Of a stretch of DNA of 64,000 nucleotides, positions 42,793-63,408 are shown one piece after another (position 1 is the first letter of the stretch; every line of letters begins with the position of its first letter). The stretch lies in contig CAVOVB010000001.1 of NCBI GenBank assembly GCA_963699755.1, positions 640,001-704,000 on the forward strand, read 5' to 3'. Below the pieces are notes generated by a model. The model saw nothing but the letters and a program-made list of their open reading frames with translations, made no database searches and was not told where the DNA came from. This stretch comes from an uncultured delta proteobacterium (GTDB lineage Bacteria; Myxococcota_A; Polyangia; Polyangiales; Houyiibacteriaceae). Position numbers and translations under genes: made by a program.

Positions 42793-43247
42793 AGCGCTAC
42801 CTCTCCAATCGCTACGACCAAGACCATGCGAACGATGATCGCCGCAGTGACGAGGCTGAGCGTCGTCTCGAGGACGCCCTGCCGCTGGTACCAAATCGCG
42901 ATGAGCCCTGGAATGATGAAGCCGATGATCGCGCCTTCGGCGAACGGAGCAGCGGGGGAGTCCAACCACATTCGCATACCGAGGCCCACCAGATAGCCGA
43001 CCAGAATGGTGAGCGCCGTTCGACGTCGGCCGTAGACAATCGCGATCTGCGAAACGCCCTTGAGAAAGCCGAAGGTCAAGAGGGCGGCCAGCAGCGTCAA
43101 CCCGATATCGACCGGCTGGTTCATGTAGAGGGCAATGTAGCCTGGGACGACCATCCCGCCGGCTGCAAGCCCGAAGAGCTCGCCGTAGAGAAGGCTGGCT
43201 GCAAGGCCCAGCCCGATCGAAAGGGTCAACAACTCAATCTCTGGCAT
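42789..43247 (-). CDS. pgsC: Poly-gamma-glutamate biosynthesis protein PgsC/CapC
   Basis: AGGMVVPGYIAL, VYGRRR, IGFIIPGLIA...RQG. Confidence 0.92.
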   Translation of the reverse strand: MPEIELLTLSIGLGLAASLLYGELFGLAAGGMVVPGYIALYMNQPVDIGLTLLAALLTFGFLKGVSQIAIVYGRRRTALTILVGYLVGLGMRMWLDSPAAPFAEGAIIGFIIPGLIAIWYQRQGVLETTLSLVTAAIIVRMVLVVAIGEVAL

Positions 43248-46459: not shown

Positions 46460-48294
46460 TGCCGGTCCGCCAACTGGGTCGCCGCCACTTTCTACTGGGC
46501 ACCGGCGGTGCCGTTCTTTCGATTCCCTTTCTTCAGTCCCTTCAGCCGCGGACCGCGCGAGCCCAGGCGCCAGATCAGAAATTCTTCGTCGCGTACATGA
46601 CTGGTCATGGAGGCGTCTGGCCGGAGCACATGTACCCGGCGAGCAATGTCCTCACCAACAGCCATGCGCTCTACGCCGATCACACGATGCGCTACGGGCC
46701 TCTCTCCGCATCGTCGTCCGGCGGTCAGGTCTCGCTCTCGCCCGTCTTGACCGGTCCGGCTGCTTCGATGCCGCAGAGCCTGGTCAACAAGATGATGGTG
46801 ATCCGAGGGCTCGATGTGCCGACGTACATCGGCCACTCTACGGCCGCCACGCTTGGAAACTACGAGCGAAGGGACCAAGGGCCCGACAGTCCGAGTTTGT
46901 ACGTGCCCACGATCGATCAAATCCTCGCGGCATGGAGCGGATTCTACGGCGGGGGCGATCCGTACATGCTGAAGTCGATGCATGTGGGGGCGGCATTCTC
47001 ATGGGTACAGCGTTCGGCCGGAATTCAGGCGATGGATCCGGCAACCAGCCCCGCTGTCCTGTTCAGCCTAGTGCTCTCTACGGTTCCACCGTATCAGCCT
47101 TCGCCGACGCCTTCACCGACACCTTCGCCGACGCCTTCGCCTTCGCCGACGCCTTCGCCGACGCCTTCACCGACACCTTCGCCGACGCCTTCGCCGACGC
47201 CGACGCCTTCCCCTTCGCCGACGCCTTCGCCGACGCCGACGCCTTCCCCTTCGCCGACGCCTTCGCCGACGCCTTCGCCGACGCCTTCGCCTTCGCCGAC
47301 GCCCAGTCCGATCCCGATGCCGGGGCAGCCCGGGGAGAGCCGAACGCACGTGCTCAATCGTGTGGTGGAGCACTTCAATCAGCTGACCACGGGAGCGTTC
47401 GGAGACGCGCGTCGGCTCAGCGCTGGCGACAAGGCCCGTCTGAACGACCACATGGATATGGTCTCCGACCTAGCCCGCCGCTTCGACACCGCTGATGCGG
47501 TTGCAACGAAGGCCGGGGGAGTCGGAGCCGCCTGCAATCCGCAGTCTGGCAACACCGGGAACACCGACACCAAGGACGACATGTACTCGCCGGTCTACAC
47601 CGACCTGAAAGCCTGGCACGAAGACTACAACGCGGTCTTTGCAGCGGCGATCTCCTGCGGAGCCAGCCGGATCGCTACAGTTCGCATCGAGAACACCTTC
47701 CATCAGAGCTCGCAGTACACGATCGACTGGGAGCAATGGCACGAGCCCGTCGCGCATCGCGCGGCTACGCCGCGAGCCAACTGGAGCGGTGGTACCCATC
47801 CGCAGGACATTCTCATCACTGCGAAGAACAACTTCTATCGCGACGCGTACCTGGATCTACTCGAGCGCTTGGACGCAATCGATGCGGGTGACGGAACCTC
47901 GCTGCTCGACAAGGGCCTGGTCATGTGGTCCCAGGAGTCTGGCCCCGTCACGCACGAAATGGACTCGACTCCGGTCATCACCGCGGGCAGCGTCGACGGC
48001 TACTTCAATACCGGAAACTACTTCGACCTCCGCAACGTGAACGCCCCTCAGTACTGGGACGACGGCAGCGGCAACACCGCGCTCCACGCGCAGCGACGCC
48101 CGGGGATCATGTACAACCAATGGCTGTCGAACATCTTGCAGTCGATGGGCATGAGCCCGAGCGAATTCCAACGAAGCCACCAGTACGGATGGGCGGGCTA
48201 CGGTCACGCCAAGATCGATCGCCCCGAACAGCACCCATCACGGCTGATCAGCGACGCGAACAAGAAGATTCCAAAGGTCACTTCGGGGACCTGA
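46459..48294 (+). CDS. DUF1552-type Tat-exported protein with internal Pro/Ser/Thr repeat
   Basis: RRHFL Tat motif, [27 protein letters not shown]-coupled to the DUF1592 gene. Confidence 0.82.
47098..47310 (+). repeat. Coding tandem repeat (CCTTCGCCGACG)n encoding (PSPT)n
   Basis: About 210 bp of near-perfect 6/12-bp units. Confidence 0.95.
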
Positions 48295-48300
48295 GCGGTC

Positions 48301-49962
48301 TCACTGCCCTTCGACGATCCTGATCTTCATCAAGTCACTCGATAGGGCGGGCGCGTGGATGGTCAGCTCCGAATCGCTACGCGTCCAACTGCCGTGAACA
48401 TCCTCGCCGATGTAGACCCGGTACGCCCGGTCTGGGTCGAGGTTACGCACGACCAGGTCGGTGGGGCGGGTGGTGACCTGGGCGCCATTGACCGTGACGT
48501 AGAGAATGGGATCGTCCCAGATGGCCTGATTCACGAAGGCATCGGGGTTGGAAACATGTGAGACGAATGGCTGCGCGTAGAAGTCAGGGCCACGTGGGTC
48601 TTCCACGACTGACCGGAAATTGTTTTCCGCCGTCGTCGCCTCTGCCCAGAGGGTGAAGCCGTTGGGAAACACCATGAACAGAGGCCACTCGGATTGATTC
48701 AGAAAGCCGTACTGGTTTCCTACCCAGAATCGCTCGCCCGCGACCGCATCGAATCCTTTCCGGAGCAGCGCGTAGCTGTCCGCATCGCCCATCTCCCGAG
48801 TCAGAACCGCCGCGTAGCCGGTGCCGATCATGTCGATCAGGGACAGATTCTGAAATTGCCCATGTCGGTTGGGTCCAAAGCTCACGATTCCGGTCCCGGG
48901 TTCGACGATCTCGATCGCCTCGCTGATGAAAGTGGGATAGTGCTCCTCGACGACCTCCGGGGCGAAGCCGTGCATGAAGTGGTGTGCCCAGGATGAATAC
49001 GCCCCGGGTAGCACCGTATCGAACTCGGGCACGGCCTCATAGGGCTTGTATCGGTTGTAGTAGTACCTTGTCTCGGGATCGAGCATGTTCGCGCCGTGCC
49101 ACTCGACGAACCGCGCGTTGGCCTCGGACGCATCCAGCTCGATCGACTTGGGCAGGATGGCGAAGGCGAGCTGTGCGACTGTGTTGCAGCAGGTGAAGAC
49201 CCAGGGGGTCTCGCAGCTGACCGAATAGAAGTTATCTCCGTTGCTGTCTCGGTTGCTCAAGCTCTGCTGATAGATGTCGCGTGACAAGTCGCGCAGGTTG
49301 GTCGTCCAGGTCTGGGAGCCGTCCGCGGTCCTGAGCTCGACATCATTATCGATGTACTTCCCGTCGCCGGCGTGCCGCTCATAGAAGCCCATCAACAACT
49401 GAAGATGGCCCGTGTACATGATGTTGTAGGGGTGGATGGGGTTGGCTCCGCCCCAGCTGAAACCGAGCTCATCGCCGCGCATCCAATAATCCCAGACGAC
49501 CGGGTTCAGAAGCTTCTGGATCATCCCATCCATCGTTTCGAGGTAGCGTTCTCGATAAGCAGGCGTCTGTTCGGCGAGCATCGAAACGCCATACCCCGTG
49601 AAAGCAATCGTGTATCGGTGCATGTTCACCGCACCGCCTGGCGCCCCCTCTCCTGCGGCCAAGCCAAACGGTACCTCTGGTCCCCAGTCGGCGGCGTTGA
49701 GGTCGTCCGGCGGAGTGATGGAGATCGAACGGATGTAATTGAACATCCCGAGCTTCTCGTTGCTCACGAAGGGAAGCTCGTCGAAGTCCGCAATCGAACC
49801 GGACTCGCTGAAGTCGTCCAGTCGGTCGATTCCCCCGGCGCCGCCAACACCGCCGGCACCGCCAATGACATCGGCCGGGCTGGCGCTTCCGCTTCCACAA
49901 GCGGTCACGAAGGCCAAGCCTAGGAGGCAAGCGATGGTGAACCCTCTGCTCGGAAATCTCAT
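48301..49962 (-). CDS. Linalool dehydratase/isomerase-like lipoprotein
   Basis: RYTIAFTGYG, NIMYTGHLQLL, SCETPWVFTCCN match the LinD pattern (NIMYxGHL; CEPxxxFxxCN); VTAC lipobox; AGGAG RBS. Confidence 0.78.
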   Translation of the reverse strand: MRFPSRGFTIACLLGLAFVTACGSGSASPADVIGGAGGVGGAGGIDRLDDFSESGSIADFDELPFVSNEKLGMFNYIRSISITPPDDLNAADWGPEVPFGLAAGEGAPGGAVNMHRYTIAFTGYGVSMLAEQTPAYRERYLETMDGMIQKLLNPVVWDYWMRGDELGFSWGGANPIHPYNIMYTGHLQLLMGFYERHAGDGKYIDNDVELRTADGSQTWTTNLRDLSRDIYQQSLSNRDSNGDNFYSVSCETPWVFTCCNTVAQLAFAILPKSIELDASEANARFVEWHGANMLDPETRYYYNRYKPYEAVPEFDTVLPGAYSSWAHHFMHGFAPEVVEEHYPTFISEAIEIVEPGTGIVSFGPNRHGQFQNLSLIDMIGTGYAAVLTREMGDADSYALLRKGFDAVAGERFWVGNQYGFLNQSEWPLFMVFPNGFTLWAEATTAENNFRSVVEDPRGPDFYAQPFVSHVSNPDAFVNQAIWDDPILYVTVNGAQVTTRPTDLVVRNLDPDRAYRVYIGEDVHGSWTRSDSELTIHAPALSSDLMKIRIVEGQ

Positions 49963-50020
49963 GAAACCTCTCCTGAAGAAGTCGCGTCTCGCAAAGAAGC
50001 GGTATGGTAAAGGCGAGCCG

Positions 50021-50629
50021 ATGTCAACGCTCGTGAGGCCTAGTTTCCCCAAGACCCGCCTGATCGCGTGGGAGGTCTTCGCGATCTGCTCGGTGACCAT
50101 CATCTTGTGTGCGTGCTCGAAGAAGAGCGCCGAGCAAGTGCCGATCATCGCGCAGCTCCCTGCGCCTTCGCTCGTCGACCAGGATCGGCAGGTCTTCGAG
50201 CGCGAAGCGATGGAGGGGAAACTCTGGGTGACCTCCTTCGTGTTCACCCATTGTCGCGCGACCTGCCCGCGACTGATGGCGCAGATGAAGAAGCTACAAG
50301 GACGCGTTTCCAACGTTCCAAGCGCCCAGCTTCTTTCGGTGAGCGTCGATCCGCAAAACGATACACCCGAGGTGATCAAGGCTTACATGCGGAGGAACGG
50401 ATTCGATGAATCCAACTGGCGCTTCGTGACCGGCGACGAAGATGCGGTTCAGGATTTCGTAGTCGGCGGCTTCAAGGTCGGCTACGGTCAGACCCGATGG
50501 TCGACCGAGCTGACACACTCGAATTCCTTGGCACTCGTGGATGACCTCGGCCGGATCCGAGGCTACTACCGCTCGGATGACGAGGGCCTCGCCGAGCTCG
50601 AGCGTGACCTGCGGGCGATTGCGCCCTAG
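50021..50629 (+). CDS. SCO1/SenC copper chaperone
   Basis: FTHCRATCP (CxxxC), VDPQNDTP, THS. Confidence 0.9.
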   Translation: MSTLVRPSFPKTRLIAWEVFAICSVTIILCACSKKSAEQVPIIAQLPAPSLVDQDRQVFEREAMEGKLWVTSFVFTHCRATCPRLMAQMKKLQGRVSNVPSAQLLSVSVDPQNDTPEVIKAYMRRNGFDESNWRFVTGDEDAVQDFVVGGFKVGYGQTRWSTELTHSNSLALVDDLGRIRGYYRSDDEGLAELERDLRAIAP

Positions 50630-50703
50630 CAGCGGCAGGGATAGGAGCACGAGCTCTTGAGGTGCAGCGACGAAGTCATGAATGCACCCATCGGCCAAGC
50701 GGC

Positions 50704-51565
50704 ATGAGCGAGGCACGTGAAAATGGGGTCGGGCGACCGCATCGGCTCTTCGGAGTGAAGATGATGAACCTGATCGGTCGTGCGGCCAATGCCCTGGGCA
50801 TGCATCCGATCGCGCTCGACGAAGAAGAGTTGATCGATCGAGCGATCAAGAAAGCGCGGAGCTCGGATTTCGGCGGGGACGAGTTCCGGGAGGGACTTCG
50901 GCGCTTCCTGGCCAGCGCCGCGAGCCAAGCCGAGCTCACCCTACTGGGCCGTCTCATGGTCCAGCGGTACGTGACCGACAACCTCGTCAATCGCTTGAAG
51001 CTGGTCGACTGGCGCAAGAAGCATAGGGCAGTCGGGTGGCGTTCGGGGTGGGCGTTGGGTGCTGAAGTCTCCGGCGCACCTGCACTTGATCGACACGCTC
51101 CTGGATGTGTTTCCCGACGCGCGGATCGTGCATACGCATCGGGACCCGATCAAGGTCTGCGCATCAGTCGCGAGCTTGACTGCCACACTTCGAGGCGCTT
51201 CGACCGACAGGATCGATCTGCACGAGGTCGGCCGCCAGCAGGTCGACTGGTGGGCCAAGCTGATCGACCAATCCCTACGGCAACGAAAGCGCCTCGCGCA
51301 CAAGAGCGAGCAATTCTTCGACGTAACGATGAGCGAAACGGTGTCGGACCCGCTAGACGTGGTGCGCCGAATATACGCGCACTTCGGCTACCCACTCAGC
51401 CACGAAGTACAAGCCCAGATGCTCGCGTTCATGAAGGACAACAGCCGCAACAAGCACGGCTCACACACCTACGCTGCCGAGGACTTTGGAATCGACCCCG
51501 TGCGCGACCGGGCACCGTTCCAAGACTACATTGACTATTTTGGCCTTGCCGAGCCTAGCCGCTGA
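50704..51565 (+). pseudogene. Sulfotransferase (Sulfotransfer_3 type), internally deleted and frameshifted
   Basis: N-terminal domain ends at DWRKKH (~51024); another frame resumes RWVLKSPAHL...HTHRDP; the PRSGTT PAPS motif region is missing. Confidence 0.8.
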
Positions 51566-51572
51566 CCGATCT

Positions 51573-52592
51573 TCAGACCGCCCCGATGGATTCGAGATGC
51601 TGACATGTGCGCTCGATGCCTTCCTCCACCGAGACGGCGGGGTCGTAGCCGAGCTCGCGGCGTGCCTTCTCGATGCTGAAGTAGTGGTGGGTGCACATGT
51701 AGCGGATCGCAAAACGCGTGAGGCCGTCTTCTGCGTTGAGGGTGCCGCCCTTGAGGGTGTCGATGCCCTCTTTGACCGCCGCAATTGCGTAGACGAGCGA
51801 CCTGGGAGCCGTGTACTTCACGGGGGGGAAGCCGAGGCGCGCGGCGACTTTGCGGATGAAGTCCCAGAATGGCATCGGTTCGCCATTGGTGATGAAGTAG
51901 GCCTGGCCGGCGGCAACGCTGTTCAAACCTTCCTTGGCGAGCGCTTGGTCGGCGAGGAGGACCGCGTCCGTCATGTTGGTCACGTAGGTGTAATCGGAAA
52001 GCCAAACACCACGCCCGATTTGAACCTGTAGCTGCCCGTTGCGACCTTTTGCAAGCAGCGTGGGCATGAAGCGGTTGTCCCCCGGACCGAAGACGACGTG
52101 CGGACGAAGGGCACAGGTCGCCATACCGCCCCTGCCGTTCTCGGCGAGCACCAGCTTCTCCGCCTCGATCTTGCTGTCCGCGTATGGGGCCTGGGAAACC
52201 GACGAGTACGGAAGACTCTCGTCGCCGTTTTCGATGTCCTTGCCCTCGTAGACCACGCTCCCGGAGCTGATGTAGATGAAACGTGGGACGCCATTGAGCC
52301 GCGCTCCTTCGAGCATGTTCTTGGTGCCGCCCAGGTTCACCGACCAAACGATGTCCTTCTTATTCTGCTTGGTGTGGACGATCGAAGCATTGTGAATGAC
52401 GCTGTCGACGCCACGGCAGGCCTCGATGACGGCAGCCTTGTCGGTGATGTCGACGCGCCTGTGCTCCACGCCCTCGACCGAGCATTCCGGCGCCAAATCG
52501 AGGACGATGACCTGATCACCCCGATCCCTGAGTGCGCGCGCAATCGCCGCGCCCAGGAAGCCACAGCCGCCCGTTACCAAACTGACAGTCAT
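51573..52592 (-). CDS. NSDHL/ERG26-like 3beta-hydroxysteroid dehydrogenase/decarboxylase
   Basis: TGGCGFLG, HNAS, SSGSVVYEGKDIENGDE, YADSK, RPHVVFGPGD, AGQAYFITNGEP...FWDF. Confidence 0.85.
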   Translation of the reverse strand: MTVSLVTGGCGFLGAAIARALRDRGDQVIVLDLAPECSVEGVEHRRVDITDKAAVIEACRGVDSVIHNASIVHTKQNKKDIVWSVNLGGTKNMLEGARLNGVPRFIYISSGSVVYEGKDIENGDESLPYSSVSQAPYADSKIEAEKLVLAENGRGGMATCALRPHVVFGPGDNRFMPTLLAKGRNGQLQVQIGRGVWLSDYTYVTNMTDAVLLADQALAKEGLNSVAAGQAYFITNGEPMPFWDFIRKVAARLGFPPVKYTAPRSLVYAIAAVKEGIDTLKGGTLNAEDGLTRFAIRYMCTHHYFSIEKARRELGYDPAVSVEEGIERTCQHLESIGAV

Positions 52593-52595
52593 GAC

Positions 52596-53282
52596 TTACT
52601 CCACCGTGCCGAAGATGATGTCGGGCAAGGGCGTGATCGAAGCGTAGTTGCCCGAAAGCATGCTGTGATGATGGCGGTCGTGGACCGCTGCGAGCTTGCC
52701 AAGGGTCTTGAACGGGAATCGAGGGCAGTCGATACCCGCATGATTGAGGATGTTGAGCGCGGTGTAAATGGTGAACAAGACAGCGAACGTGATGACGTGC
52801 ACGCCTCCGACGAACGCAAGCGAGCTGAAGAACAAGCTGAGGCCGAGAAAGGTTTCGACGGGATGCAACAAGAGGCTGTCGATCTGCCTCGGATTTCTCG
52901 CCGCGTGGTGAACAGAATGAACACCACGTAGGATCTTCCATTCATGGAATGGGTAGCGGTGCATGAAGTAGTACCCGAAGTCGTAGATCAGAATCACGGT
53001 CACTCCCTCGAGCAAGAATCGCCAAAGCGGCATGGCACGGTCGTGGTAGAGGTGCTCTCCCAATCCGAACATCACCGAAAAGATGAGGGTGATCGAAACG
53101 ACCATGTTGAGTCGAACCCTCCAACGGAGCTCGCTCTCGCTCTTCGAGCGATGGGGGTCGTCGCTGATCAGGTACTTCTGCGCTTCAGGGCTGCGGTAGG
53201 CCTTGTTGAGAACGACCTGTGCGATCCCCGCCGAGGCGTAACTGGCGAGGATGGCTATCAATGCTTTCATTTCCACCGTCAT
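52596..53282 (-). CDS. Sterol desaturase/fatty-acid hydroxylase family di-iron enzyme (ERG25/ERG3 superfamily)
   Basis: His boxes HRYPFH, HSVHH, HP, NHAG, HDRHH; NYASITPLPD. Confidence 0.88.
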   Translation of the reverse strand: MTVEMKALIAILASYASAGIAQVVLNKAYRSPEAQKYLISDDPHRSKSESELRWRVRLNMVVSITLIFSVMFGLGEHLYHDRAMPLWRFLLEGVTVILIYDFGYYFMHRYPFHEWKILRGVHSVHHAARNPRQIDSLLLHPVETFLGLSLFFSSLAFVGGVHVITFAVLFTIYTALNILNHAGIDCPRFPFKTLGKLAAVHDRHHHSMLSGNYASITPLPDIIFGTVE

Positions 53283-53290
53283 CTCATCAC

Positions 53291-54454
53291 CTAGGGCACC
53301 AATCTGAGAACGAGCGTACCAGCAATCATGAAGGCGAAAACGGCAACGGCCGCCAGCCTCGACCAGGTCTTGCTGTAGGAGGATTTGACGCCTGAGGCGG
53401 CCCGGAAAGACGTCGATTCGCTGTCGAGCTCCAGAGGTTCGGCGCTCGCGGGAAAGCTTTGGCAGAGGAGCGCGACGCCCCGTGCGACGTCCCTTTCGGA
53501 GAGCGCGTCGTGCGTGCGCATGTAGACCTTGCCGGTGTTCACATGGGCCATGCAGGAGCCGCAGTACCCCGACTCGCAGGAATGGGGCGGATTCAGGCCC
53601 GCCGCTTGCGCACACTGCAAGAGGGTCTTGCCTTTCTCGTATGGAACGGTTCGAGATCGGCCGTTCATCCATAGGCTGAAGCCAGCGGGGGCCGCGAGAG
53701 ACTCGACGTGGATCGCATCCGCTTCGACCCGAGCGGGATCGGCGGGAGAGACGAAGCGCTCGATGTAGACGAGCTCCTCGTGCACCCCTGCCTCTTCGAG
53801 CGTCTCCCGGATGAGCTCCATGAAAGGCTCGGGGCCACAGATGTAACACTCGGCGACGTCGCTGTGATGGAGGAGCCCTCGCACGTCCGCTGGCTCCACA
53901 CAACCGCTCTCCGAATCGAAATGGTATCGAATGTGTAGGCGCTCGGTATGCTCTGCTGCGAGCTGCGCGAGCTCAGCGCCGTAGATGACCGAGTGCAGGT
54001 CTCGGTTGGCGTAGAGCAAAGTGATGCAGCGCTTGGTCGTCGCGAGGGCGCTCTTCAGAAGTGAAATGATCGGAGTGATTCCGCTTCCGCCGGCGAATAG
54101 GAAGAGCGGGGAGCTCGATCGAGTTTCTGGATCCAGAACGAAGCGGCCCTCGGGGATGCTTGCACGGATCGAGTCACCGACCTTCAGATTGTCGTTGAGC
54201 CAGTTGGAGATTCGACCTCCTTCTACCCTTTTTACGGCAATTTTGAGAGGTTCATCGAGGTCGGGGCAGCTCGACAAGGAATAGCAGCGCGTGACTTTGA
54301 AGTCGTCCCAAGGGAGCTCGACGGTGAGGTGCTGGCCTGATCGATACCGGTAGGCATCTCGCAGGCTCATCGGCACTCGGAGCTCGAACGAGCTGGAGTC
54401 GGCCGTCTCGCGAATGACGGCGCTGACTTCGAGCTCGTGAAACTCGACGCTCAT
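53291..54454 (-). CDS. FAD/NAD(P)H/[2Fe-2S] reductase, KshB-like, with C-terminal TM helix
   Basis: RCYSLSS, AGGSGITP, LLYANRD, ICGPEPFM, CESGYCGSC...LCQ, then LAAVAVFAFMIAGTLVL. Confidence 0.88.
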   Translation of the reverse strand: MSVEFHELEVSAVIRETADSSSFELRVPMSLRDAYRYRSGQHLTVELPWDDFKVTRCYSLSSCPDLDEPLKIAVKRVEGGRISNWLNDNLKVGDSIRASIPEGRFVLDPETRSSSPLFLFAGGSGITPIISLLKSALATTKRCITLLYANRDLHSVIYGAELAQLAAEHTERLHIRYHFDSESGCVEPADVRGLLHHSDVAECYICGPEPFMELIRETLEEAGVHEELVYIERFVSPADPARVEADAIHVESLAAPAGFSLWMNGRSRTVPYEKGKTLLQCAQAAGLNPPHSCESGYCGSCMAHVNTGKVYMRTHDALSERDVARGVALLCQSFPASAEPLELDSESTSFRAASGVKSSYSKTWSRLAAVAVFAFMIAGTLVLRLVP

Positions 54455-55134
54455 GGCTCTTCTTCCAAACCAGCCCTCTCGAGAGCTGCGGCCAGATGCT
54501 CTGGTTTGCAGTAGCTCCTGAGCAGATGCCTGAGCGCCGCATCGGCTAGGCGACTAGAGTCTTCCTTGCATCCTCGATCCATCCACATCGCCAACCGTGC
54601 TTGCTGCGCCGCGATCATCATCCTTGCCATGAGCTCCGGATCGTCATCGACGAGATACCCGTCTTCGATGCAGCTCCGGAAGAGGCTCGCGACGAGATCC
54701 AAACCGACCCCGAGTGCCTCGACCTGTTCGGGGCTGCGTAGCAGCTCGATCGTCGACCAGGCGGTGACTTCCTTGAGTTGCATCTTGGTGAAGTCGAGGT
54801 GCTCCATGAAGAAGGACAGCTGCGTTCGAGTTCCGGCGATGAGGATGTCGAGCGAAGACATCTCTTTTTGAAGAACGTCTTGTGTGCGGAGCATGACCTC
54901 GCCCAAGCGCCGGCGGTGCACGGCGCGGTAGATCTCCCACTTGGAAGGGAGCACGCTGTAGAGCGTGGTCAGCGAGACCCCTGCCTCGGCGGCGATCCGC
55001 TGCACTTTGGTGGCCTCGTAGCCCTCCTGGCCAAACACCCGTTCCGCGGCGTCGAGGACGGCCTCGCGATAGAGCTCGCGCTTCCTATCCTTCAGGGATT
55101 CTTGGGCTTTTGCGGCTGCGGCGCTCGTTGACAC
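54451..55134 (-). CDS. TetR/AcrR family regulator
   Basis: VLDAAERVFGQEGYEATKVQRIAAEAGVSLTTLY; ATGA-coupled to the reductase. Confidence 0.9.
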   Translation of the reverse strand: MSTSAAAAKAQESLKDRKRELYREAVLDAAERVFGQEGYEATKVQRIAAEAGVSLTTLYSVLPSKWEIYRAVHRRRLGEVMLRTQDVLQKEMSSLDILIAGTRTQLSFFMEHLDFTKMQLKEVTAWSTIELLRSPEQVEALGVGLDLVASLFRSCIEDGYLVDDDPELMARMMIAAQQARLAMWMDRGCKEDSSRLADAALRHLLRSYCKPEHLAAALERAGLEEEP

Positions 55135-55140
55135 GGTTGG

Positions 55141-55185
55141 GTCGGAATGATAAGGGCGAAAATCAGAATGTCAATTCCGATTTCG
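55141..55185. promoter_or_regulatory. Palindromic operator candidate between TetR and ALDH
   Basis: AAATCAGAAT-gtca-ATTCCGATTT inverted repeat over the ALDH start, plus an extra TCGGAAT half-site at 55142. Confidence 0.55.
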
Positions 55186-56760
55186 GCGGAGACCGAATCT
55201 GCACCTTCCGCGCCGGCTAGCCAGATCCCATGTGTCGACCCGGCGACGCGAGAGCGACTTGGAGCGATTCCCGTCGACTCTCCTGAGGACGTCGCTGCCG
55301 CCGTGGCGCGTGCCAAGGTCGCGCAGAAAGCTTGGCGTAGGACTTCGTTCGAACAGCGACGCGAGCTTCTGCGGCGGCTGCTCGCATTCACGGTCGATCA
55401 GAAGGACGAGATCTGTCTCGCGGTGCAGCGCGACTCCGGTAAGACCCGAGAAAACGCGCTGATGGGGGAGATCTGGCCAACCTGCGAGAAGTTTCGCTGG
55501 ATGATCAAGAATGGCGAGAAGTATCTTCGCCCCGAACGCGTCTCGTCTGGCTTGCTGCTCCATAAGACGGCGCGCCTCGAGTATCACCCGCTCGGTGTCA
55601 TCGCCGCAATCATTCCCTGGAACTATCCGTTCCAGAACATCGTCAACCCGGTGATCCCGGCTCTGATGTCGGGAAATGCAATCGTCCTCAAGCCATCGGA
55701 GTGGGTGGCCTGGTCGAGCGACAAGTTCGTCCAGGCGCTTCAAAAGGTCGTCGAAGAAGCGGGACACAATCCGGATCTGATTCAGGCGGTGCAAGGGTAC
55801 GGACCCACCGGCGCAGCACTCGCTCGCTCTGCGGTCGATTCGATCCTGTTCATCGGCTCGGTTCGCAACGGGCGTCGCGTCATCGAAGCCAGCGCGGAGC
55901 GGGTTGTCCCGGTCGTCATGGAGCTCGGCGGCAAGGACGCTTTCATCGTCTGCGATGATGCGGATCTCGAACAGGCAGTCCATGCCTCGCTCGCTGGTTG
56001 CTACATCAATTGCGGACAGAACTGCGTCGCTTCGGAGCGAATTTTGGTCTACGAGGACATCTACGACGCCTTCGAAAAGCGAGCCGCAGAGCTGGTTCGA
56101 GAGTTTCGACAGGGCAGCAGCCGTGAGGGCGTTGTCGATGTCGGCGCGATCGTCACGCCCCTACAGCTCGACGTGATCGAGATGGCGGTCGATGGGGCGA
56201 TCGCCGAGGGTGCTCGGGTCATCACCGGGGGCAAACGCGTGCTGAGCGACAAGGGTGATTACTTCGAGCCGACCATCTTGGCAGACGTGACGCCAGAGAT
56301 GGACATCGCACAGGAAGAGGTCTTTGGCCCGGTGATGCTCTTGATGCGCGTACGAGATGATGCGCATGCGGTCGAGGTCGCAAATGGGGTGGCGTACGGC
56401 CTCTCGTCGTCGGTTTTTTCCAAGAACCGCTCGCGGGCTCGCAAGATCGCCTCGGAGCTCGAAGCCGGCATGAGCGCGATCAACGAGTTCGGCGGAATCA
56501 CGTACATGGCGCAAGGACTCACCTTCGGTGGCGTGAAGGCTTCGGGATACGGTCGAATGAACGGTCGTGAAGGCTTGCGTTCGATGTGCAACATCAAGGC
56601 GGTCGTCGATGATCGCTTGCCGATCAACAAAGCCAACCGGGTTTTCCCGGTCGCTGAGAAGGACTATGGCGTTTTCAGTGCTGTGATCGAGCTGATCTAT
56701 GGCAAGAGCCTCGCGCAGCGATGGCGTGGCTTGCTGAAGCTGTTGGGCCGAAAGCGCTGA
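55168..56760 (+). CDS. Aldehyde dehydrogenase
   Basis: PWNYP, KPSE, FIGS, ELGGKD, GQNC, EEVFGP. Confidence 0.95.
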   Translation: MSIPISAETESAPSAPASQIPCVDPATRERLGAIPVDSPEDVAAAVARAKVAQKAWRRTSFEQRRELLRRLLAFTVDQKDEICLAVQRDSGKTRENALMGEIWPTCEKFRWMIKNGEKYLRPERVSSGLLLHKTARLEYHPLGVIAAIIPWNYPFQNIVNPVIPALMSGNAIVLKPSEWVAWSSDKFVQALQKVVEEAGHNPDLIQAVQGYGPTGAALARSAVDSILFIGSVRNGRRVIEASAERVVPVVMELGGKDAFIVCDDADLEQAVHASLAGCYINCGQNCVASERILVYEDIYDAFEKRAAELVREFRQGSSREGVVDVGAIVTPLQLDVIEMAVDGAIAEGARVITGGKRVLSDKGDYFEPTILADVTPEMDIAQEEVFGPVMLLMRVRDDAHAVEVANGVAYGLSSSVFSKNRSRARKIASELEAGMSAINEFGGITYMAQGLTFGGVKASGYGRMNGREGLRSMCNIKAVVDDRLPINKANRVFPVAEKDYGVFSAVIELIYGKSLAQRWRGLLKLLGRKR

Positions 56761-58340
56761 TGGACCAGTTCGACTACATCGTGGTTGGGGGCGGATCAGC
56801 AGGCTGCATCGCAGCCGCTGAGCTCGCGGGTGATCCTCGGTATCGCGTGCTCCTACTGGAGGGCGGACCCAGGGCCGAGGAGCACCCCGAAACCCTGGTC
56901 GCGGACGGCTACAAAGAGGCATTCGTCAACGATGCCGTGATGGGAGAGCGGTTTTCGGTTCCGCAGGCCCACGCCGGCAAGCGGCGAATCTTCGCTGGTA
57001 CCGGGACCGTGATGGGCGGCAGTGGTTCTGTGAACGCCATGGTCTACACGCGTGGCTCGCGCGAGGACTACGCAGAGTGGCCTGAGGGCTGGCACTGGGA
57101 CGACAATCTCGCTGATTTCCGCGCGATCGAGGAGACGCTTCGACCACATCGACGCCCTGCGACCGCCTGGACCGAAGCCTGCATCGCTTCGGCGGAACAG
57201 CACGGCTTCACCCGGAAAGAAGACCTCAACGACGGCAACATGAGCAACGTCATCGGCTACGAGTGGATGTCCTACGAGGGCGAGAACCGTCGAAGCTCCT
57301 ACGTGGCGTTCATCAAGGACGCCGGCGCACGTCCGAATCTCACCGTCGTCACGGGCGCCCTCGCCCATCGGGTCGTGTTCACGGGCGAGAAGCTGGCCCG
57401 TGCGGTCGAGTTCGAACATGCGGGTGCGCTCCAGCGGGCGGAGGCGAGCAAAGAGATCGTACTTTGCGCCGGCGCACTGGAGACCCCGAAGCTGCTCATG
57501 CTCTCGGGCGTGGGTCGGAGCGAACACCTGCGGACCTTCGACATCCCCCTGGTTGCCAATAGGCCAGCAGTCGGAGACGGGCTTCACGATCACCCGAACG
57601 TGCCCGTCTTCTTCCAGGCCGAGAAGGGCATCGACTGCTTCTATCCGCAGCTCTACAGCTTTTTCCGTACCAACCACGCGAGCGACCTTCCGGCCTCGCA
57701 GAGCGACACTTGCTATGTGTACTGGCCGGCTCCTTCGGCGATGCAGCAGATGATGGAGCGCATGCTGCCGCCGATGGCGGTCCCGCATGGGCTCTACGGC
57801 CCGCGATCGCGACAAATGGTGCGCGGCATGGTGGGCACCGCGTTCAAGCTCGGCGCTGTACGACGTTTCACCGACCGGATGTTCGGGATCATCTTGATCC
57901 TCGGGAAGCCAAAGAGCCGCGGCACGCTGCGTTTGCAGTCGACCGACGTGCGCCGCCAGGCGCTCATCGATCCGGCCTATTACTCGGACCCGGAGGACAT
58001 GGAGACGATGGTCAGAGGCGTTCGGATTGCCAAAGCGATAGGTGCTTCGGGCGGGCTCGCGGAATGGGGGGCCAAGGAGCTCATGCCTGGCAAGCGGGTC
58101 CAGAGCGATGAGGCCATCGCCAACTACGTCCGAAAGAACACGATTACGACCTATCACGTCGCCGGAAGCTGCAGCATGGGTGTCACCGAAGCGCACGCGG
58201 TCGACCCTCAGCTCCGCCTGCGAGGCGTCACGGGTCTGCGAATTGCGGATGCTTCAGTGATCCCTTGGACGCCGGTTTCCGCGCTCAACGCCCCGAGCAT
58301 GCTGATCGGCTATCGCGCCGCGAAGCTCATCCGGAGCTGA
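56760..58340 (+). CDS. GMC family oxidoreductase
   Basis: VGGGSAG, GGSGSVNAM, TPKLLMLSGVG, YHVAGSC, ADASVIP; TGATG coupling. Confidence 0.93.
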   Translation: MDQFDYIVVGGGSAGCIAAAELAGDPRYRVLLLEGGPRAEEHPETLVADGYKEAFVNDAVMGERFSVPQAHAGKRRIFAGTGTVMGGSGSVNAMVYTRGSREDYAEWPEGWHWDDNLADFRAIEETLRPHRRPATAWTEACIASAEQHGFTRKEDLNDGNMSNVIGYEWMSYEGENRRSSYVAFIKDAGARPNLTVVTGALAHRVVFTGEKLARAVEFEHAGALQRAEASKEIVLCAGALETPKLLMLSGVGRSEHLRTFDIPLVANRPAVGDGLHDHPNVPVFFQAEKGIDCFYPQLYSFFRTNHASDLPASQSDTCYVYWPAPSAMQQMMERMLPPMAVPHGLYGPRSRQMVRGMVGTAFKLGAVRRFTDRMFGIILILGKPKSRGTLRLQSTDVRRQALIDPAYYSDPEDMETMVRGVRIAKAIGASGGLAEWGAKELMPGKRVQSDEAIANYVRKNTITTYHVAGSCSMGVTEAHAVDPQLRLRGVTGLRIADASVIPWTPVSALNAPSMLIGYRAAKLIRS

Positions 58341-58433: not shown

Positions 58434-59453
58434 ATGACCAAAGCCAAGCACCTCTTCATCGCCGTCCTAGCCCTGGGCGCCTTCATGCTGCCAGGGACTG
58501 TTTCCCTACCCCAGGCGAACGCTGCCTCCTCGACGATCATTCGCTTTGCATCTCTCGCACCCCCCGGCTCGGCGTTCATGAAGTTGATGAAGGCTTGGAA
58601 CCGGAGCCTGAAGACCGAAACCGAAAACCGAGTCGAGCTTCGCTTCTACTCGGGCGGGAGCCAAGGCGACGAGCGCGACTTCATCCGCAAGGTGCGCGCG
58701 GGGCAGATGGACGCGGCCGGAGTCACGACCACGGGCCTTGGAATGGTCGCGCGTCCGGTTCTGGTTCTGACCGCACCCGGAATGATCACCGAATACGCGC
58801 AGCTCGAACGCGCGCGCGAGCAGCTGGGCGAGCGATTCTCCAAGTTGTTCAGGGAAAATGGGTTTGTCATGCTGGCTTGGGGAGAGGCCGGTAAGAACCG
58901 CATTTTTTCCATGGAAAAGTTTGCGAAACCCGATGACTTGAAGCGGCTCCGACCCTGGGCATGGAAAGACGACCCGGTTTTCGCCGGCTATGTCAGCACC
59001 ATCGGCGCGAATCCGGTGCGCATGGGCGTGCCCGAAGTCTACGGAGGTTTGCAGACGCGAATGCTCGACACCGTGCCCGCCTCGGCGCTCGCTGCTGTCG
59101 CGCTCCAGTGGTACACGCGCCTCAACTACATGGCGAAGGAGAACTTCGGCATCATCATCGGCGGCTCGGTCATCAAGCAGGAGAAGTTTGATCTGCTGAG
59201 TGAGCATGATCAGAAAGTGCTGATGGACACCAGCGAGCGCGCCGCACGAGCCGGCGACGTGATGGCACGCCGGGACGACGAGCGGGCCTATGCTTCACTG
59301 ATCAAGCGCGGCATGGTCGAAGTGGACACCGCTGCCTACCAGGCCGAATGGGACGCCGTCGCCAAGAAGACGCGCGAAAGCCTGACCGGTCGGGTCTACA
59401 GCAAGAGCCTCCTCGAAGCCGTCGAGAAGGTCGTAGCGGGCGAGCCTAACTAG
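58434..59453 (+). CDS. dctP: TRAP transporter solute-binding protein DctP
   Basis: Signal peptide; FASLAPPGS, GDERD, EVYGGLQT, LQWY. Confidence 0.85.
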   Translation: MTKAKHLFIAVLALGAFMLPGTVSLPQANAASSTIIRFASLAPPGSAFMKLMKAWNRSLKTETENRVELRFYSGGSQGDERDFIRKVRAGQMDAAGVTTTGLGMVARPVLVLTAPGMITEYAQLERAREQLGERFSKLFRENGFVMLAWGEAGKNRIFSMEKFAKPDDLKRLRPWAWKDDPVFAGYVSTIGANPVRMGVPEVYGGLQTRMLDTVPASALAAVALQWYTRLNYMAKENFGIIIGGSVIKQEKFDLLSEHDQKVLMDTSERAARAGDVMARRDDERAYASLIKRGMVEVDTAAYQAEWDAVAKKTRESLTGRVYSKSLLEAVEKVVAGEPN

Positions 59454-60286
59454 CCCAATTCGTCACGGAGAAACCGAAGCGAGAGCTCATTGAAGAGCTT
59501 CGGGTATTCGACCATGACCCAATGGCCGCAGCGGGAAATCAGCATCGTGCGTGAGTTCGCACAGCGGCTCGCGATTTTGGCCGCACCGCTCGAAGGACAG
59601 AACTTGTCATTGGCGCCCCAGAAGCAGAGCACCGGACACTGAATCTCGGAGAGCCTGTCTTCCTGGTTCGCAACGTGGATGCGGGCAATGTTGTCCCGGT
59701 GTTGCGTCATCGCGATCTGAAATCGCTCTTCGATCACCTCGTCGGTGATCTTCGATTCGTCATGAAGCTGCAGCGTGAAAACCTTGCGCATGGTTTCCTT
59801 GCTGATGCCCTCTTTGAAGAGGACGCGAATCATCGCTTTGATCCCCTCCATCTCCATGTAAGTCTCTCGCGCTTCGAGGCCGCCCGGCGCCATCAAGACG
59901 AGCTTCTCGACCAGCTCCGGATAGTTGAGCGCCATCGTGATGGCGATCGCTCCGCCCTGTGAGTTGCCGATGACGGCGGCGCGCTCGACAGCGAGGGAGT
60001 CGAGGAGGCCCTTGTACTGGGCGGCGACGTCGTCGAGGCTGAACACCCCGTCTTCAGGCTTGGTCGAATAGCCGTAGCCCATCGTGTCGGGCACGATTGT
60101 TCGGTAGCCCTGCTCGGCGAGGAAGGGGTAGTTCCCCTTGAAGTTACTCCAACCGCTGGCGCCTGGACCGCTGCCGTGGACGAACAAGACGACGCCACGT
60201 TCCCCGCTGCCGGCCTCGTGGTAGTGCATCGTGATGCCCTTACCGGTGTCGGCGTATCTTCCCTCGGGAACTGCTTCTACGACCAT
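59450..60286 (-). CDS. hsaD: Meta-cleavage product hydrolase, TesD/HsaD-like
   Basis: HGSGPGASGWSNF, GNSQGG, LMAPGG, FWGANDKFCPSSGA, CGHWVMVE. Confidence 0.85.
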   Translation of the reverse strand: MVVEAVPEGRYADTGKGITMHYHEAGSGERGVVLFVHGSGPGASGWSNFKGNYPFLAEQGYRTIVPDTMGYGYSTKPEDGVFSLDDVAAQYKGLLDSLAVERAAVIGNSQGGAIAITMALNYPELVEKLVLMAPGGLEARETYMEMEGIKAMIRVLFKEGISKETMRKVFTLQLHDESKITDEVIEERFQIAMTQHRDNIARIHVANQEDRLSEIQCPVLCFWGANDKFCPSSGAAKIASRCANSRTMLISRCGHWVMVEYPKLFNELSLRFLRDELG

Positions 60287-60350: not shown

Positions 60351-61271
60351 TCAGTCCTTTTTGCCCTTCGCTTCTTTGGCGCGCCGGTAGGCCTTGGTGA
60401 GGAGCTGCGGAGGATGATGCCCCCACTCGCTGACCTTGTCGTGGGTCATGCTCTTCCAACCCTCTCCGATTTCGATGGCCCCAGCGCCGAACTCGAAGTG
60501 AAAACCGGAGGGCGTGTACCCGTAGAACGAAAACATCTTGTCGTTGGGGTGCCGCCCCAGGGTTTGGTGAACCATCCCGCCGGAGAAGAGGAAGCGATCG
60601 TAACACCTGCCGACTTCATCCAGCGTCTTGGACTGCACCATGAAGTGGTGAATGCGCTTGAGCTGCCCGCCACCGAATGCAAGCGAGTGATGCCGCGCGT
60701 TGGCGTGCATGAAGGTGACGTTGATCTCGTGCCCAAAGTACTCACAACGAATGTAGTCGCTGAGCTCGAGCCCGAAGATGCTCGCATAGAACTGTTCCTG
60801 CTTCGCGTCGTCTTTGGAGACGACGACGACGTGTCCAAAACCCTGTTCGTCCGCGACGAAACCCGAAGCGACGACTTCGGAGAGGAACGGCTCGTCGGCC
60901 ATCCTGGGACCGTAGAAGATCTCGATCGGGTTCCCAGCCGGATCACTTGCTCGAACGAGCGCCTGAACGTTTCGCCTAGCGGCGTCGTCCTGGCTAGCCT
61001 CGACGACCTCGTGTCCGGCACGTTTGAGGCTTTGGACGATCTCTTCGAGCGCCGCGGGGCCTTCGACCTCCCAGCCGACCGCCGCCAGGTCGTCCGCCGG
61101 CCCCTTCTCGATGAAGAAGCGCTGCTGATAGCCATCCATGCGTAGAGAAAAACCGCTATCACCGCGCCGATCGACCAGCTGGAGACCAAGAATCTTGGTT
61201 CCGAAATTCTCCCACGCCGCGAGGTCGCTGACCTCGAAGACCAAGTATCCCGCTTGCTTTACCGCAGCCAT
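60351..61271 (-). CDS. hsaC: Extradiol ring-cleavage dioxygenase, TesB/HsaC/BphC family
   Basis: LRMD, DPAGNPIE, GFGHVV, NARHHSLA, IHHFM, LGRHPNDKMFSFY.TPSGF..EFG. Confidence 0.85.
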   Translation of the reverse strand: MAAVKQAGYLVFEVSDLAAWENFGTKILGLQLVDRRGDSGFSLRMDGYQQRFFIEKGPADDLAAVGWEVEGPAALEEIVQSLKRAGHEVVEASQDDAARRNVQALVRASDPAGNPIEIFYGPRMADEPFLSEVVASGFVADEQGFGHVVVVSKDDAKQEQFYASIFGLELSDYIRCEYFGHEINVTFMHANARHHSLAFGGGQLKRIHHFMVQSKTLDEVGRCYDRFLFSGGMVHQTLGRHPNDKMFSFYGYTPSGFHFEFGAGAIEIGEGWKSMTHDKVSEWGHHPPQLLTKAYRRAKEAKGKKD

Positions 61272-61324: not shown

Positions 61325-62032
61325 ATGTTGATGAAATCCACCGCAACGGCGAGAGGGCCCACGGTCCCGACTGCAGCAGTCATCGCAACCGTCGTCGTCG
61401 TCGGCACGCTGTTCCACACCTGGCTGCACCAGCGCGAGCACGGCATCTACAACATTACGCAGATCGGCTTGGCGTTCTTCCTGGTGATCAACATGATGAT
61501 CGCGTGGTGGGAGATCGCGTTGTTCGTCTGCCAAGATCAGATTCACGCCGAGTACGAGGCCACCAAGGAACCTTACCGCGGACGCGAGCTGCAACGAATC
61601 GGAGAGATCTTCGCGCGCCGCATCCCGCTGTTGCGCGTTTTCTCCTTCAGCGAGTGGACGACGATTTGGTCGGGCTATTCGCTCTTCGACCCGGGGTACT
61701 CCGACCGACGCTCGTTCGGCTACAACATCGACGTAGGCAACGGCTTCACGACCCTGATTCCGGCAACCCTATTCGCATTCGGCATGACCTTCGAGCTGAT
61801 GCCAGCGCGCTGGCTCGGCATCATCGGCGTGGTCATGTTCTGGCAGATGTTCTACGGAACCTCGGTTTACTTTTTCCAGTTCTTCAACAACGGCCGCCAC
61901 GAAGGCCACTCGCTCAGGGACCTCCTGCTCTTCGTCGGCATCACCAACCTGATGTGGCTCGTATTTCCGATCTGGGGGCTCTGGACGAGCATCCAGCTGA
62001 TTCTGAGCGGCTCCTACGGCCTCTTTCTCTAG
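61325..62032 (+). CDS. Integral membrane protein, possible EBP/EXPERA-like
   Basis: Five TM segments; W..Y...DP.Y and terminal NLMWLVFP pattern. Confidence 0.6.
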   Translation: MLMKSTATARGPTVPTAAVIATVVVVGTLFHTWLHQREHGIYNITQIGLAFFLVINMMIAWWEIALFVCQDQIHAEYEATKEPYRGRELQRIGEIFARRIPLLRVFSFSEWTTIWSGYSLFDPGYSDRRSFGYNIDVGNGFTTLIPATLFAFGMTFELMPARWLGIIGVVMFWQMFYGTSVYFFQFFNNGRHEGHSLRDLLLFVGITNLMWLVFPIWGLWTSIQLILSGSYGLFL

Positions 62033-63408
62033 ATCGCGCGCCGGTCTCTCGATTTCAGCATCATTTTCTGCATCTGCTTGAAGTCGGCAACGGCATCCTG
62101 CTCGTCGGTCGAAAACGGATAGTCGGCGCCGATCGAATGGGCAACGACCAGCCCGGACATGAAGGACAAGTCGTGTCCGCCCTCTGGAGTCGTGAACGTA
62201 CCGCAGTAGTAGAGCCCGTCCTTCCCCTGAAGGTGTCGCATCATCGACATGATGATGAGGTTCCCCAGCGAGACGCTGTGGGTGGGATGGGGCAGCTCGA
62301 TCCGTTTCTGAGCTCGCTCGATCGGCCGCTTCGCGTTGAAGGTGACCAGCATCGGCACACCCTGGTCCTTGGTGCTCGGGTTCTGGGCCGAGATGACGAA
62401 AGTGCACTCGAGCTCGCCCGCTTCATCGATTTGCGAATAGGTGTTGTACCCGGAGAGGATCTTGTCGCGATGTTCCCCGGGGAAGATGCTCGTGTCGGAG
62501 TGAACGATGAAGCTGGAGAACGTCGGATCGACGTCGTCTACGTACTCAGCCCTGCTGAAGAGGAGCCTCTGAAGCCAGCTGGGAGATTCGAGCGCGTCGA
62601 GCACCGAGGTCGCATCACAGGCGAAGACCACCTCATCGGCTTCGTAGCTCCGCCCTCTTGCATCAGCGAGGATGTACCGACCGTTTCTCCGTTTCACGCT
62701 CGTGATTTCGTGGTCGCAGTGCACCCGATCCGAAAATCGCGCCGTCATGCGGTCGAAAACCTGCCGGGGCGCGCCTTGCCAGGTTCCCATCTGCGTAGGC
62801 TCTTCGAGAGGTACGATGCTTTCGAGCAAGGGCAGGATCACCGCGGGAACCCCGCGCATCGAAGTCGTGATGAAGCTCGCGCAGTGGATCGGAACGAAGA
62901 TCGTGTCCCAGAAGTCGCGCGAGATCCCAAAGAGCCGGGCCATCCAGTAGAGCGGGATGAAGTTGAGCGGGTTGAAATACGAGAAGTGGTAGAGAGAGTC
63001 GTGTTTGTTTCTTGGCAGGAAGAAATCGTTCACCTTGCTGACGAAGGCGACGAGCCGCTTCCACCGGCGAAACTCGGGCGCGAATCGCTGCTGGAGCGCG
63101 GTTTGCCCGTCCTGGCAGAAGTGCCCCTCGGGGGTCTGCACGAAGTATGAGATGGGCAAGGTTTCGATTCCGACGCCTAGCTGCTGCAGGAGCAGCTCGT
63201 AGTTGTGGTAGTACATCTGCGGCCAGGCGACGACGAGGAGGGGCGAGTCCGCATGGCCTCGATCGGTGCGCCAGCGAAAGGTCTTCGCGTTGCCGCCGAG
63301 CGCAGGGCCCTTCTCGAAGATGTCTACCTCGTAGCCCGAGCGGCTGAGCGACCAGGCCGCGCCAACCCCGGCGATACCCCCTCCAACGACCGCTATCTGC
63401 TTGGTCAT
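62029..63408 (-). CDS. FAD-dependent oxidoreductase (amine-oxidase/COG2907-like)
   Basis: IAVVGGGIAG, FEKGPALGGNA, LQGKDGLYYCG...GGHDLSFMSG. Confidence 0.85.
   Translation of the reverse strand: MTKQIAVVGGGIAGVGAAWSLSRSGYEVDIFEKGPALGGNAKTFRWRTDRGHADSPLLVVAWPQMYYHNYELLLQQLGVGIETLPISYFVQTPEGHFCQDGQTALQQRFAPEFRRWKRLVAFVSKVNDFFLPRNKHDSLYHFSYFNPLNFIPLYWMARLFGISRDFWDTIFVPIHCASFITTSMRGVPAVILPLLESIVPLEEPTQMGTWQGAPRQVFDRMTARFSDRVHCDHEITSVKRRNGRYILADARGRSYEADEVVFACDATSVLDALESPSWLQRLLFSRAEYVDDVDPTFSSFIVHSDTSIFPGEHRDKILSGYNTYSQIDEAGELECTFVISAQNPSTKDQGVPMLVTFNAKRPIERAQKRIELPHPTHSVSLGNLIIMSMMRHLQGKDGLYYCGTFTTPEGGHDLSFMSGLVVAHSIGADYPFSTDEQDAVADFKQMQKMMLKSRDRRAI

Follow-up and report, generated by a model that had tools for sequence, protein, structure and literature searches.

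A conserved six-gene unit of an SG8-38-like myxobacterium as a candidate for regulated C-4 demethylation of scavenged sterols

Inspection of a 64,000-nucleotide stretch of DNA from an SG8-38-like myxobacterium of the order Polyangiales (hereafter the window; C1:640001-704000 of the source genome, G000) reveals a compact set of six genes, which we read as a candidate unit for the removal of C-4 methyl groups from sterols. Four of them lie on the minus strand and begin with a TetR-family regulator of 227 residues (54451..55134, PF00440), followed by a FAD/NAD/2Fe-2S reductase of the PaaE/KshB type with a C-terminal hydrophobic anchor (387 residues, 53291..54454), a membrane di-iron hydroxylase (228 residues, 52596..53282; PF04116, 87 bits) and an NSDHL/ERG26-like extended short-chain dehydrogenase/reductase (SDR; 339 residues, 51573..52592; PF01073, 212 bits). 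The reductase is the predicted electron donor of the hydroxylase, itself a predicted methyl oxidase, and the SDR is a predicted 3beta-dehydrogenase/C-4 decarboxylase. The tetR and reductase genes overlap by 4 bp, and the gaps between reductase and hydroxylase and between hydroxylase and SDR measure 8 and 3 bp, respectively. On the plus strand, an aldehyde dehydrogenase (ALDH; 530 residues, 55168..56760; PF00171, 436 bits), predicted to oxidise a 4-formyl group to the acid, overlaps by 1 bp a GMC flavoprotein oxidoreductase (526 residues, 56760..58340; PF00732 and PF05199), predicted to catalyse the alcohol oxidation step. The original prediction, made on this window alone, had described this tightly packed operon facing the ALDH and GMC genes, and all six genes were recovered at the positions it gave.

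The start codons of tetR and the ALDH gene are 33 bp apart, and the tetR promoter and associated repeats span 55142..55180. The promoter (TTGACA-16-TATCAT, minus strand, 55174-55147) agrees with the consensus at 11 of 12 positions; an imperfect palindrome, TCRGAAT-N4-ATTCYGA, at 55163-55180 overlies its -35 box and is accompanied by a half-site at 55142-55148, the two together forming the predicted TetR operator. The original prediction had set a palindrome inside the divergent gap: the length of the gap was right, but the conserved repeat straddles the ALDH start codon. The palindrome is conserved across 44 aligned rows, and its pattern has a single exact site in the 5.35 Mb of the source genome, is present in 25 of 27 genomes of the same genus versus 2 of 33 other genomes of the family, and when reversed as a control gives no match in any of the 61 genomes; thus it represents more than chance. 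No further operator-controlled gene was found in the source genome, where four of the five one-mismatch sites lie within genes. In nine of the 15 loci where inserted genes part the ALDH gene from tetR, a second copy of the operator is found at the ALDH start, as it is in G170, 10 kb away, so that ALDH and GMC are likely to share the TetR regulon. The arrangement suggests that the operon may be inducible. Identity of the regulator with KstR was rejected (25 bits on the KstR model against a cut-off of 280). Separately, a three-gene insert (a sulfotransferase, an SDR and a 407-residue protein) recurs between tetR and the ALDH gene in L021, L040, L058 and other loci.

The six genes form a real, conserved unit. 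Among 56 related loci, many of them truncated, the SDR gene stands beside the hydroxylase gene in 50, the reductase gene in 47, tetR in 46 (and also in distant families), the ALDH gene in 42 and the GMC gene in 38. Synteny in related genomes, proposed earlier as a check, thus holds, with the gene order shuffled: ALDH-SDR-reductase-hydroxylase in L065, TetR|ALDH-reductase-hydroxylase in L069, hydroxylase|TetR-SDR in three other families (L132, L134, L141) and ALDH-GMC...TetR-SDR-hydroxylase in L192; a reordered hydroxylase-TetR-SDR set is also kept in G291. The GMC gene, absent from L065, L069, L132, L134 and L141, is the most dispensable part. In one genome (G145) the reductase and the hydroxylase are a single protein of 641 residues, encoded beside the GMC, ALDH, TetR and SDR genes, and this fusion indicates that the two are partners. 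No longer, fused version of the hydroxylase turned up among 1842 candidates, a screen that must be regarded as insensitive given the fusion in G145. When seven candidates were scored in each of 301 genomes of the phylum, 23 had an SDR orthologue with 50% identity or more, and all 23 also encode the hydroxylase family. Three plasmid records match the hydroxylase (29-37% identity), partner genes being absent in the two regions examined, and atlas searches returned only family-level clusters.

The hydroxylase possesses the full set of histidine-box di-iron motifs of the fatty acid hydroxylase superfamily (PF04116), its nine histidines (H108, H113, H122, H125, H126, H181, H201, H204 and H205) being invariant in 60 rows. 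Its structural model (predicted local distance difference test, pLDDT, 95) finds its best fold match in the Scs7p hydroxylase (E 0.011), which confirms the superfamily only; no PDB relative was found by sequence, and the best NCBIfam match is OlsE, at 25 bits. It heads a distinct bacterial subfamily of about 225 residues. In a 72-row tree, drawn, like the other hydroxylase trees, from matches to the query and without verified ERG3, CH25H, SUR2 or CER1 sequences, this subfamily (98/90) falls outside the clade of sterol methyl oxidases (ERG25/SMO; 99/98), and a branch (98/85) separates the hydroxylase family, the SMO clade and a small bacterial group from ERG3-like rows. The place of the subfamily on the SMO side of that branch is tentative, a grouping with ERG3-like rows not being rejected (p 0.067). 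Orthology with ERG25/SMO was rejected: the hydroxylase stands outside the eukaryotic SMO clade, into which a lone paralogue of the same genome (C1:607605-608387, or L088:9605-10384) does fall, and the substrate of the hydroxylase has consequently to be read from its context only. A sister subclade of the hydroxylase in L135-L143 (family f29) and in P0283 (Haliea) is encoded amid thiolase-like, OB-fold and cytochrome P450 (P450) genes and without the SDR, and possibly serves another steroid step.

Analysis of the SDR gives a NAD-type Asp (D32) and the YxxxK of extended SDRs (Y137xxxK141), together with C300xxH303 near the C-terminus; the NAD-type Asp is lacking in the OleD and SdmB rows. A passage of PMC4633953 describes Cys312 and the carboxylate-binding Arg315 of Erg26p, the human enzyme having His in place of the latter; the spacing of C300xxH303 equals that of Cys312/Arg315 when mapped by offset rather than by alignment. 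The best PDB match is human NSDHL (6JKG, 130 bits), on which four paralogues score 117-143 bits. The SDR belongs to a clade of its own (18 rows, of which 17 keep the C-x-x-H; Shimodaira-Hasegawa-like approximate likelihood ratio test, SH-aLRT, 99), apart from OleD and SdmB, and JGI names three of the five named members of its cluster sterol-4alpha-carboxylate 3-dehydrogenase. The NSDHL/ERG26-like label given earlier is thus borne out as a likeness, but not as a unique one, since paralogues score as high or higher. Identity with OleD was dismissed (250 bits against a cut-off of 580, and a separate clade), a distinct OleD of the genome adjoining ole-type genes in its own clade; so was identity with SdmB (82 bits against a cut-off of 600, outside the SdmB clade). 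Every reductase orthologue among those listed ends in a C-terminal hydrophobic helix, which the KshB-like paralogue at C1:194828 lacks. This paralogue lies in a cluster of KshB-like, KshA-like and unknown 181-residue genes (C1:194828-197390 and 204037-205506) with an ERG4/ERG24-family gene nearby. Among NCBIfam models, the ALDH scores highest on PRK09407, a succinic semialdehyde dehydrogenase (412 bits, under the cut-off). By annotation, length and adjacency our ALDH probably belongs to the 'ERG27-analog' family, that of yeast P38694 and its relatives.

We further analyzed the source genome, a 5.35-Mb bin that is 100% complete and 9% contaminated, for genes of steroid breakdown and sterol synthesis, as the original prediction had proposed. 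It contains nine KshA_C Rieske genes (above the KshA_C cut-off), two HsaA-like genes and one KstD-like gene; an hsaA-like gene adjoins acetaldehyde dehydrogenase and aldolase genes, and one P450 protein matches best the CYP125 and CYP142 steroid C26 monooxygenases in the PDB (246 and 218-224 bits). Six further genes of the 3beta-hydroxysteroid dehydrogenase (3beta-HSD) family score above 170 bits. HMGR and two reductase genes of the ERG4/ERG24 family are retained. No oxidosqualene cyclase (OSC) was found by profile search, and tblastn with the OSC, the squalene epoxidase and the squalene synthase of a genome of the same genus gave no match; SdmA was not found either. The full sterol synthesis pathway that would have spoken against the original prediction is therefore not in evidence, and any sterol enzyme of this genome would presumably act on sterols from outside. 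A KshA_C Rieske gene at C1:1386822-1388879 (L091) is divergent from an ERG3-like hydroxylase gene and could form with it a sterol desaturation pair. Near-duplicate blocks (a KshA-like pair, a 3beta-HSD, an FAD oxidoreductase and a GMC gene) occur at 1.82-1.86 Mb of C1 and 140-180 kb of C7, and C3 and C9 share identical genes; the contamination may be the cause.

About 1.1 kb past the GMC gene, beyond a gene for a DctP-type binding protein (58434-59453; transporter genes not adjoining, at least 13 paralogues in the genome), lie genes for an HsaD/BphD-like meta-cleavage product hydrolase (59450..60286, minus strand; NF045632, 187 bits) and an HsaC/BphC-like extradiol dioxygenase (60351..61271, minus strand; TIGR03213, 299 bits, and NF045631, 222 bits), the latter the sole such match in the genome; the original prediction had noticed both, and their scores are below the cut-offs. 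They are followed by a conserved membrane protein of 233 residues (61331..62032, plus strand) and by an FAD-dependent oxidoreductase (62029..63408, minus strand), which closes a run of genes on one strand headed by those for CYP51 and cycloeucalenol isomerase (CPI1) at C1:704704-706856. The window itself holds no sterol synthesis gene, as had been claimed, though these two start at most 1.5 kb past its end, 12-14 kb from the hydroxylase gene; a divergent ferredoxin gene is also found just past the end. The best PDB matches of the CYP51 are CYP51 proteins (472 bits), and JGI names orthologues of the CPI1 cycloeucalenol cycloisomerase. Among 27 genomes of the genus, the hydroxylase is present in 27, CPI1 and CYP51 in 26 each and OSC in 11; where a contig is shared, CPI1 lies within 20 kb of the hydroxylase in 17 of 18 genomes, and in 13 of 15 the distance to CYP51 is at most about 20 kb. 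Another lineage (L173, L174) has the hydroxylase gene divergent from a CYP51 fused to a C-terminal ferredoxin-like segment. A role of the 233-residue protein as an EBP-type isomerase, suggested by sequence motifs, was not confirmed: the protein has no Pfam or PDB match, and its model (pLDDT 53) best resembles unrelated helical proteins (Z 7.7).

The distribution of the unit was followed in 60 genomes of the family, counting as carriers the 34 with a hydroxylase orthologue of at least 55% identity, a cut set where the identities jump from 46% to 58%. HsaA-like genes are present in 33 of the 34 carriers versus none of the 26 other genomes, OSC in 14 versus 22, and canonical SdmA (at least 65% identity to that of G220) in none versus 18; close orthologues of the hydroxylase thus track HsaA rather than OSC. 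The lone ERG25-like paralogue is likewise found in 23 carriers versus none of the others. The catabolic setting proposed earlier is supported by the breakdown markers, the lack of an OSC in the source genome and the association of carriers with HsaA, and is tempered by the OSC of 14 carriers.

Gene content, linkage, fusion, operator and distribution are matters of observation; from these we lean towards reading the unit as a regulated system for the C-4 demethylation of scavenged sterols, predicted to feed steroid breakdown. Electrons from NAD(P)H would reach the membrane di-iron hydroxylase through the anchored reductase, which would take the role of cytochrome b5, and the hydroxylase would then hydroxylate a C-4 methyl group of the sterol. 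GMC and ALDH could then carry CH2OH to CHO and COOH, and the NSDHL-like SDR could oxidise the 3beta-hydroxyl with NAD+, whereupon the beta-keto acid would lose CO2. The resulting 3-ketosteroid could pass to KstD and KshA, with no ketoreductase needed. Cycloartenol-type sterols, from plants or algae, may have their cyclopropane ring opened by CPI1 and their C-14 methyl taken off by CYP51, lanosterol-type sterols being an alternative input. The ERG25-like paralogue (C1:607605) may take the other C-4 methyl, much as a passage of PMC2817430 has plant SMO1 and SMO2 acting at separate points.

Several observations weigh against this reading. On a profile built from 120 SMO-type proteins the hydroxylase scores 69 bits versus 205 for the lone paralogue, and topology tests on 34 rows reject its placement within the core SMO clade (approximately unbiased test, p-AU 3e-5) and as the exclusive sister of SMO (p 0.017), a grouping with ERG3-like rows not being rejected (p 0.067). 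Two SDR paralogues score higher than the SDR on NSDHL (141 and 143 versus 130 bits), and the carboxylate-site His, found also in OleD and in two paralogues, is not diagnostic by itself. In the 301 genomes of the phylum, 22 of the 45 with the hydroxylase family lack a close SDR; in distant metagenome loci, many of them short, the SDR is adjacent in only 9 of 51, and most copies stand alone. CPI1 is limited to one genus. The HsaA, HsaC, HsaD and KstD matches are all under their curated cut-offs (HsaA 415 of 450, KstD 592 of 789, HsaC 222 of 450, HsaD 187 of 400 bits), in a bin with the contamination given above. An OSC in 14 of the 34 carriers means that the unit is not confined to non-producers, and ten carriers have an SdmA-like Rieske protein (34-39% identity). 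Moreover, the correlation with HsaA comes from five genera and lacks independence, several genomes being incomplete, and amounts to a handful of events rather than a statistical test.

Some of these points would suit a unit that oxidises the sterol elsewhere, either by carrying a side-chain methyl to the acid in substitution for CYP125/CYP142 or by desaturating or hydroxylating the rings; the SDR would then be a common 3beta-HSD that lets the sterol enter breakdown. Such a role agrees with the exclusion of the hydroxylase from SMO orthology and with the tolerated ERG3-like grouping, a hydroxylase with alcohol and aldehyde dehydrogenases suits any methyl-to-acid route, and it accounts equally for the tracking of HsaA; yet the genome already has a CYP125/CYP142-like P450 and the six other 3beta-HSD-family genes, an ALDH in the regulon would be of no use to a desaturase, and the SDR forms a distinct clade linked with the hydroxylase; we consider this role unlikely. 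Less likely still is a C-4 demethylase for the maturation of membrane sterols, serving biosynthesis in OSC carriers and, in the other carriers, the remodelling of sterols taken up, rather than breakdown. The published reading is biosynthetic (PMC8237579), and this role fits the OSC of 14 carriers together with the lack of canonical SdmA in all 34, the HMGR, CYP51, CPI1 and two ERG4/ERG24-family reductases kept in the source genome, and a genome (G240) that has OSC, SdmA, a 66% SDR orthologue and a distant hydroxylase, unclustered and without HsaA. Against this, the hydroxylase family occurs in none of 20 OSC neighbourhoods (which gave no ERG25/26 references either), close orthologues follow HsaA and not OSC, the unit adjoins the hsaC/hsaD-like genes, and none of the six genes is an evident 3-ketoreductase unless the ALDH-family protein is one. 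A substrate other than a sterol (a methyl-branched lipid, a diterpenoid or an aromatic methyl, as in the XylMA or CymA upper pathways), with the sterol genes nearby by history, seems very improbable in spite of the best NCBIfam matches to OleD (SDR, 250 bits), OlsE (hydroxylase, 25 bits) and BphC (dioxygenase) and of many distant hydroxylases without sterol neighbours, given the separate OleD beside ole-type genes, the adjacent CYP51 of the second lineage and the match with the distribution of HsaA.

Within the C-4 demethylation reading, a bolder version may be put forward, though only tentatively: SG8-38-type myxobacteria might run a plant-style post-cycloartenol pathway, with two di-iron C-4 methyl oxidases, a cyclopropane isomerase and CYP51, as a way into breakdown. 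The unit, which brings a reductase of its own, anchored or fused, might then be the first catabolic C-4 demethylase that is self-contained, and the 'ERG27 analogue' might be an aldehyde dehydrogenase of C-4 methyl oxidation and not a ketoreductase.

Other features of the window lie on the far side of the unit. A sulfotransferase-family gene at 50662-51565 is seemingly split in two frames with a deletion, a whole gene of 422 residues being present in G260; about ten paralogues occur in the genome. A linalool dehydratase/isomerase-like lipoprotein (48301-50148; PF18566, 128 bits), which adjoins the unit, was not found in the 56 related loci. A long Pro-Ser/Thr repeat protein (46459-48294) is paired with a neighbour at 44678-46459 that is presumably of the PSCyt type. 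Three genes at 41512-44430, kept downstream of the unit in many relatives, resemble the poly-gamma-glutamate synthesis genes capB/capC/pgsW.

Parts of the unit have probably been noticed before, computationally, as a sterol-making set. In the passages available of the supplement of Hoshino and Gaucher 2021 (PMC8237579), SG8_38 proteins of 223-224 residues are listed in the ERG25 in-group, those of 338-339 residues go under the name 'Bacterial ERG26 homolog 1', the accessions being consecutive, and those of 511-525 residues appear in a later tree; the three genes are mostly adjacent and the trio is read as biosynthetic, its ALDH-family member as the 3-ketoreductase, by phylogenomics alone. By organism, length and adjacency, this trio probably consists of orthologues of our unit. 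These passages do not mention a reductase or its fusion, a TetR operator, GMC or any connection with breakdown, and 'catabol' has no match in the supplement. The ketoreductase 'ERG27 analogue' goes back, in a passage of Desmond and Gribaldo 2009 (PMC2817430), to a protein annotated as succinate-semialdehyde dehydrogenase, and the portion available of Wei et al. (PMC4919349) lists ERG25/26 homologues in myxobacteria without assays. Searches on SG8-38 with steroid, catabolic C-4 demethylation, bacterial CPI1 and Myxococcota steroid breakdown, at the level of abstracts and with most subscription papers outside their reach, returned no experimental study of the unit. To this our analysis adds the electron donor together with its fusion, an operator that ALDH and GMC probably share, the CYP51/CPI1 island and the tie to breakdown rather than synthesis. 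The unit is a complete, clonable candidate that includes its electron donor and is suited to the existing lanosterol-producing E. coli system. In the literature searched, as far as it was accessible, no genes are assigned to the steps by which 4-methyl and 4,4-dimethyl sterols enter the 9,10-seco pathway, and the term 'demethyl' is absent from the accessible text of a review of steroid breakdown (PMC6678751). Two phylogenomic claims are reopened by our analysis. One assigns the ERG25-27 cluster of myxobacteria to biosynthesis, a point that matters for the proposal that eukaryotic sterol synthesis arose from myxobacteria; the other makes the ALDH-family 'ERG27 analogue' the enzyme that reduces the 3-ketone. 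If bacteria in sediments strip C-4 methyls from the sterols of algae and plants, this would have consequences for 4-methylsterane biomarkers as well.

Comparing the unit with known systems, it shares with the eukaryotic ERG25/SMO-ERG26/NSDHL-ERG27 complement a histidine-box membrane di-iron enzyme and an NSDHL-type SDR with the NAD-type Asp, the YxxxK and, by offset, a His where the carboxylate is predicted to bind. In contrast to the eukaryotic C-4 demethylase, its hydroxylase, placed apart from the SMO clade, is without the HSGY(D)xP motif; the unit supplies a 2Fe-2S flavin reductase of its own, either anchored or fused, probably has ALDH and GMC under the operator and has no ERG27, in a genome without OSC. 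With SdmA/SdmB/SdmC, which demethylate C-4 in E. salina according to the available part of Lee et al. (PMC10202945), it has in common the proposed net reaction and the phylum, whereas SdmA is a Rieske enzyme that was not found in the source genome, the SDR is outside the SdmB clade, and the two systems have a near-complementary distribution in the family. A parallel in setting is the mycobacterial CYP51/8,14-Bsr, a CYP51 and its reductase noted in sterol degraders in the accessible text of PMC13277303: there too a sterol demethylation enzyme is kept in degraders, for a proposed remodelling of host sterols, but it acts at C-14 by P450 chemistry, whereas our unit is predicted to act at C-4.

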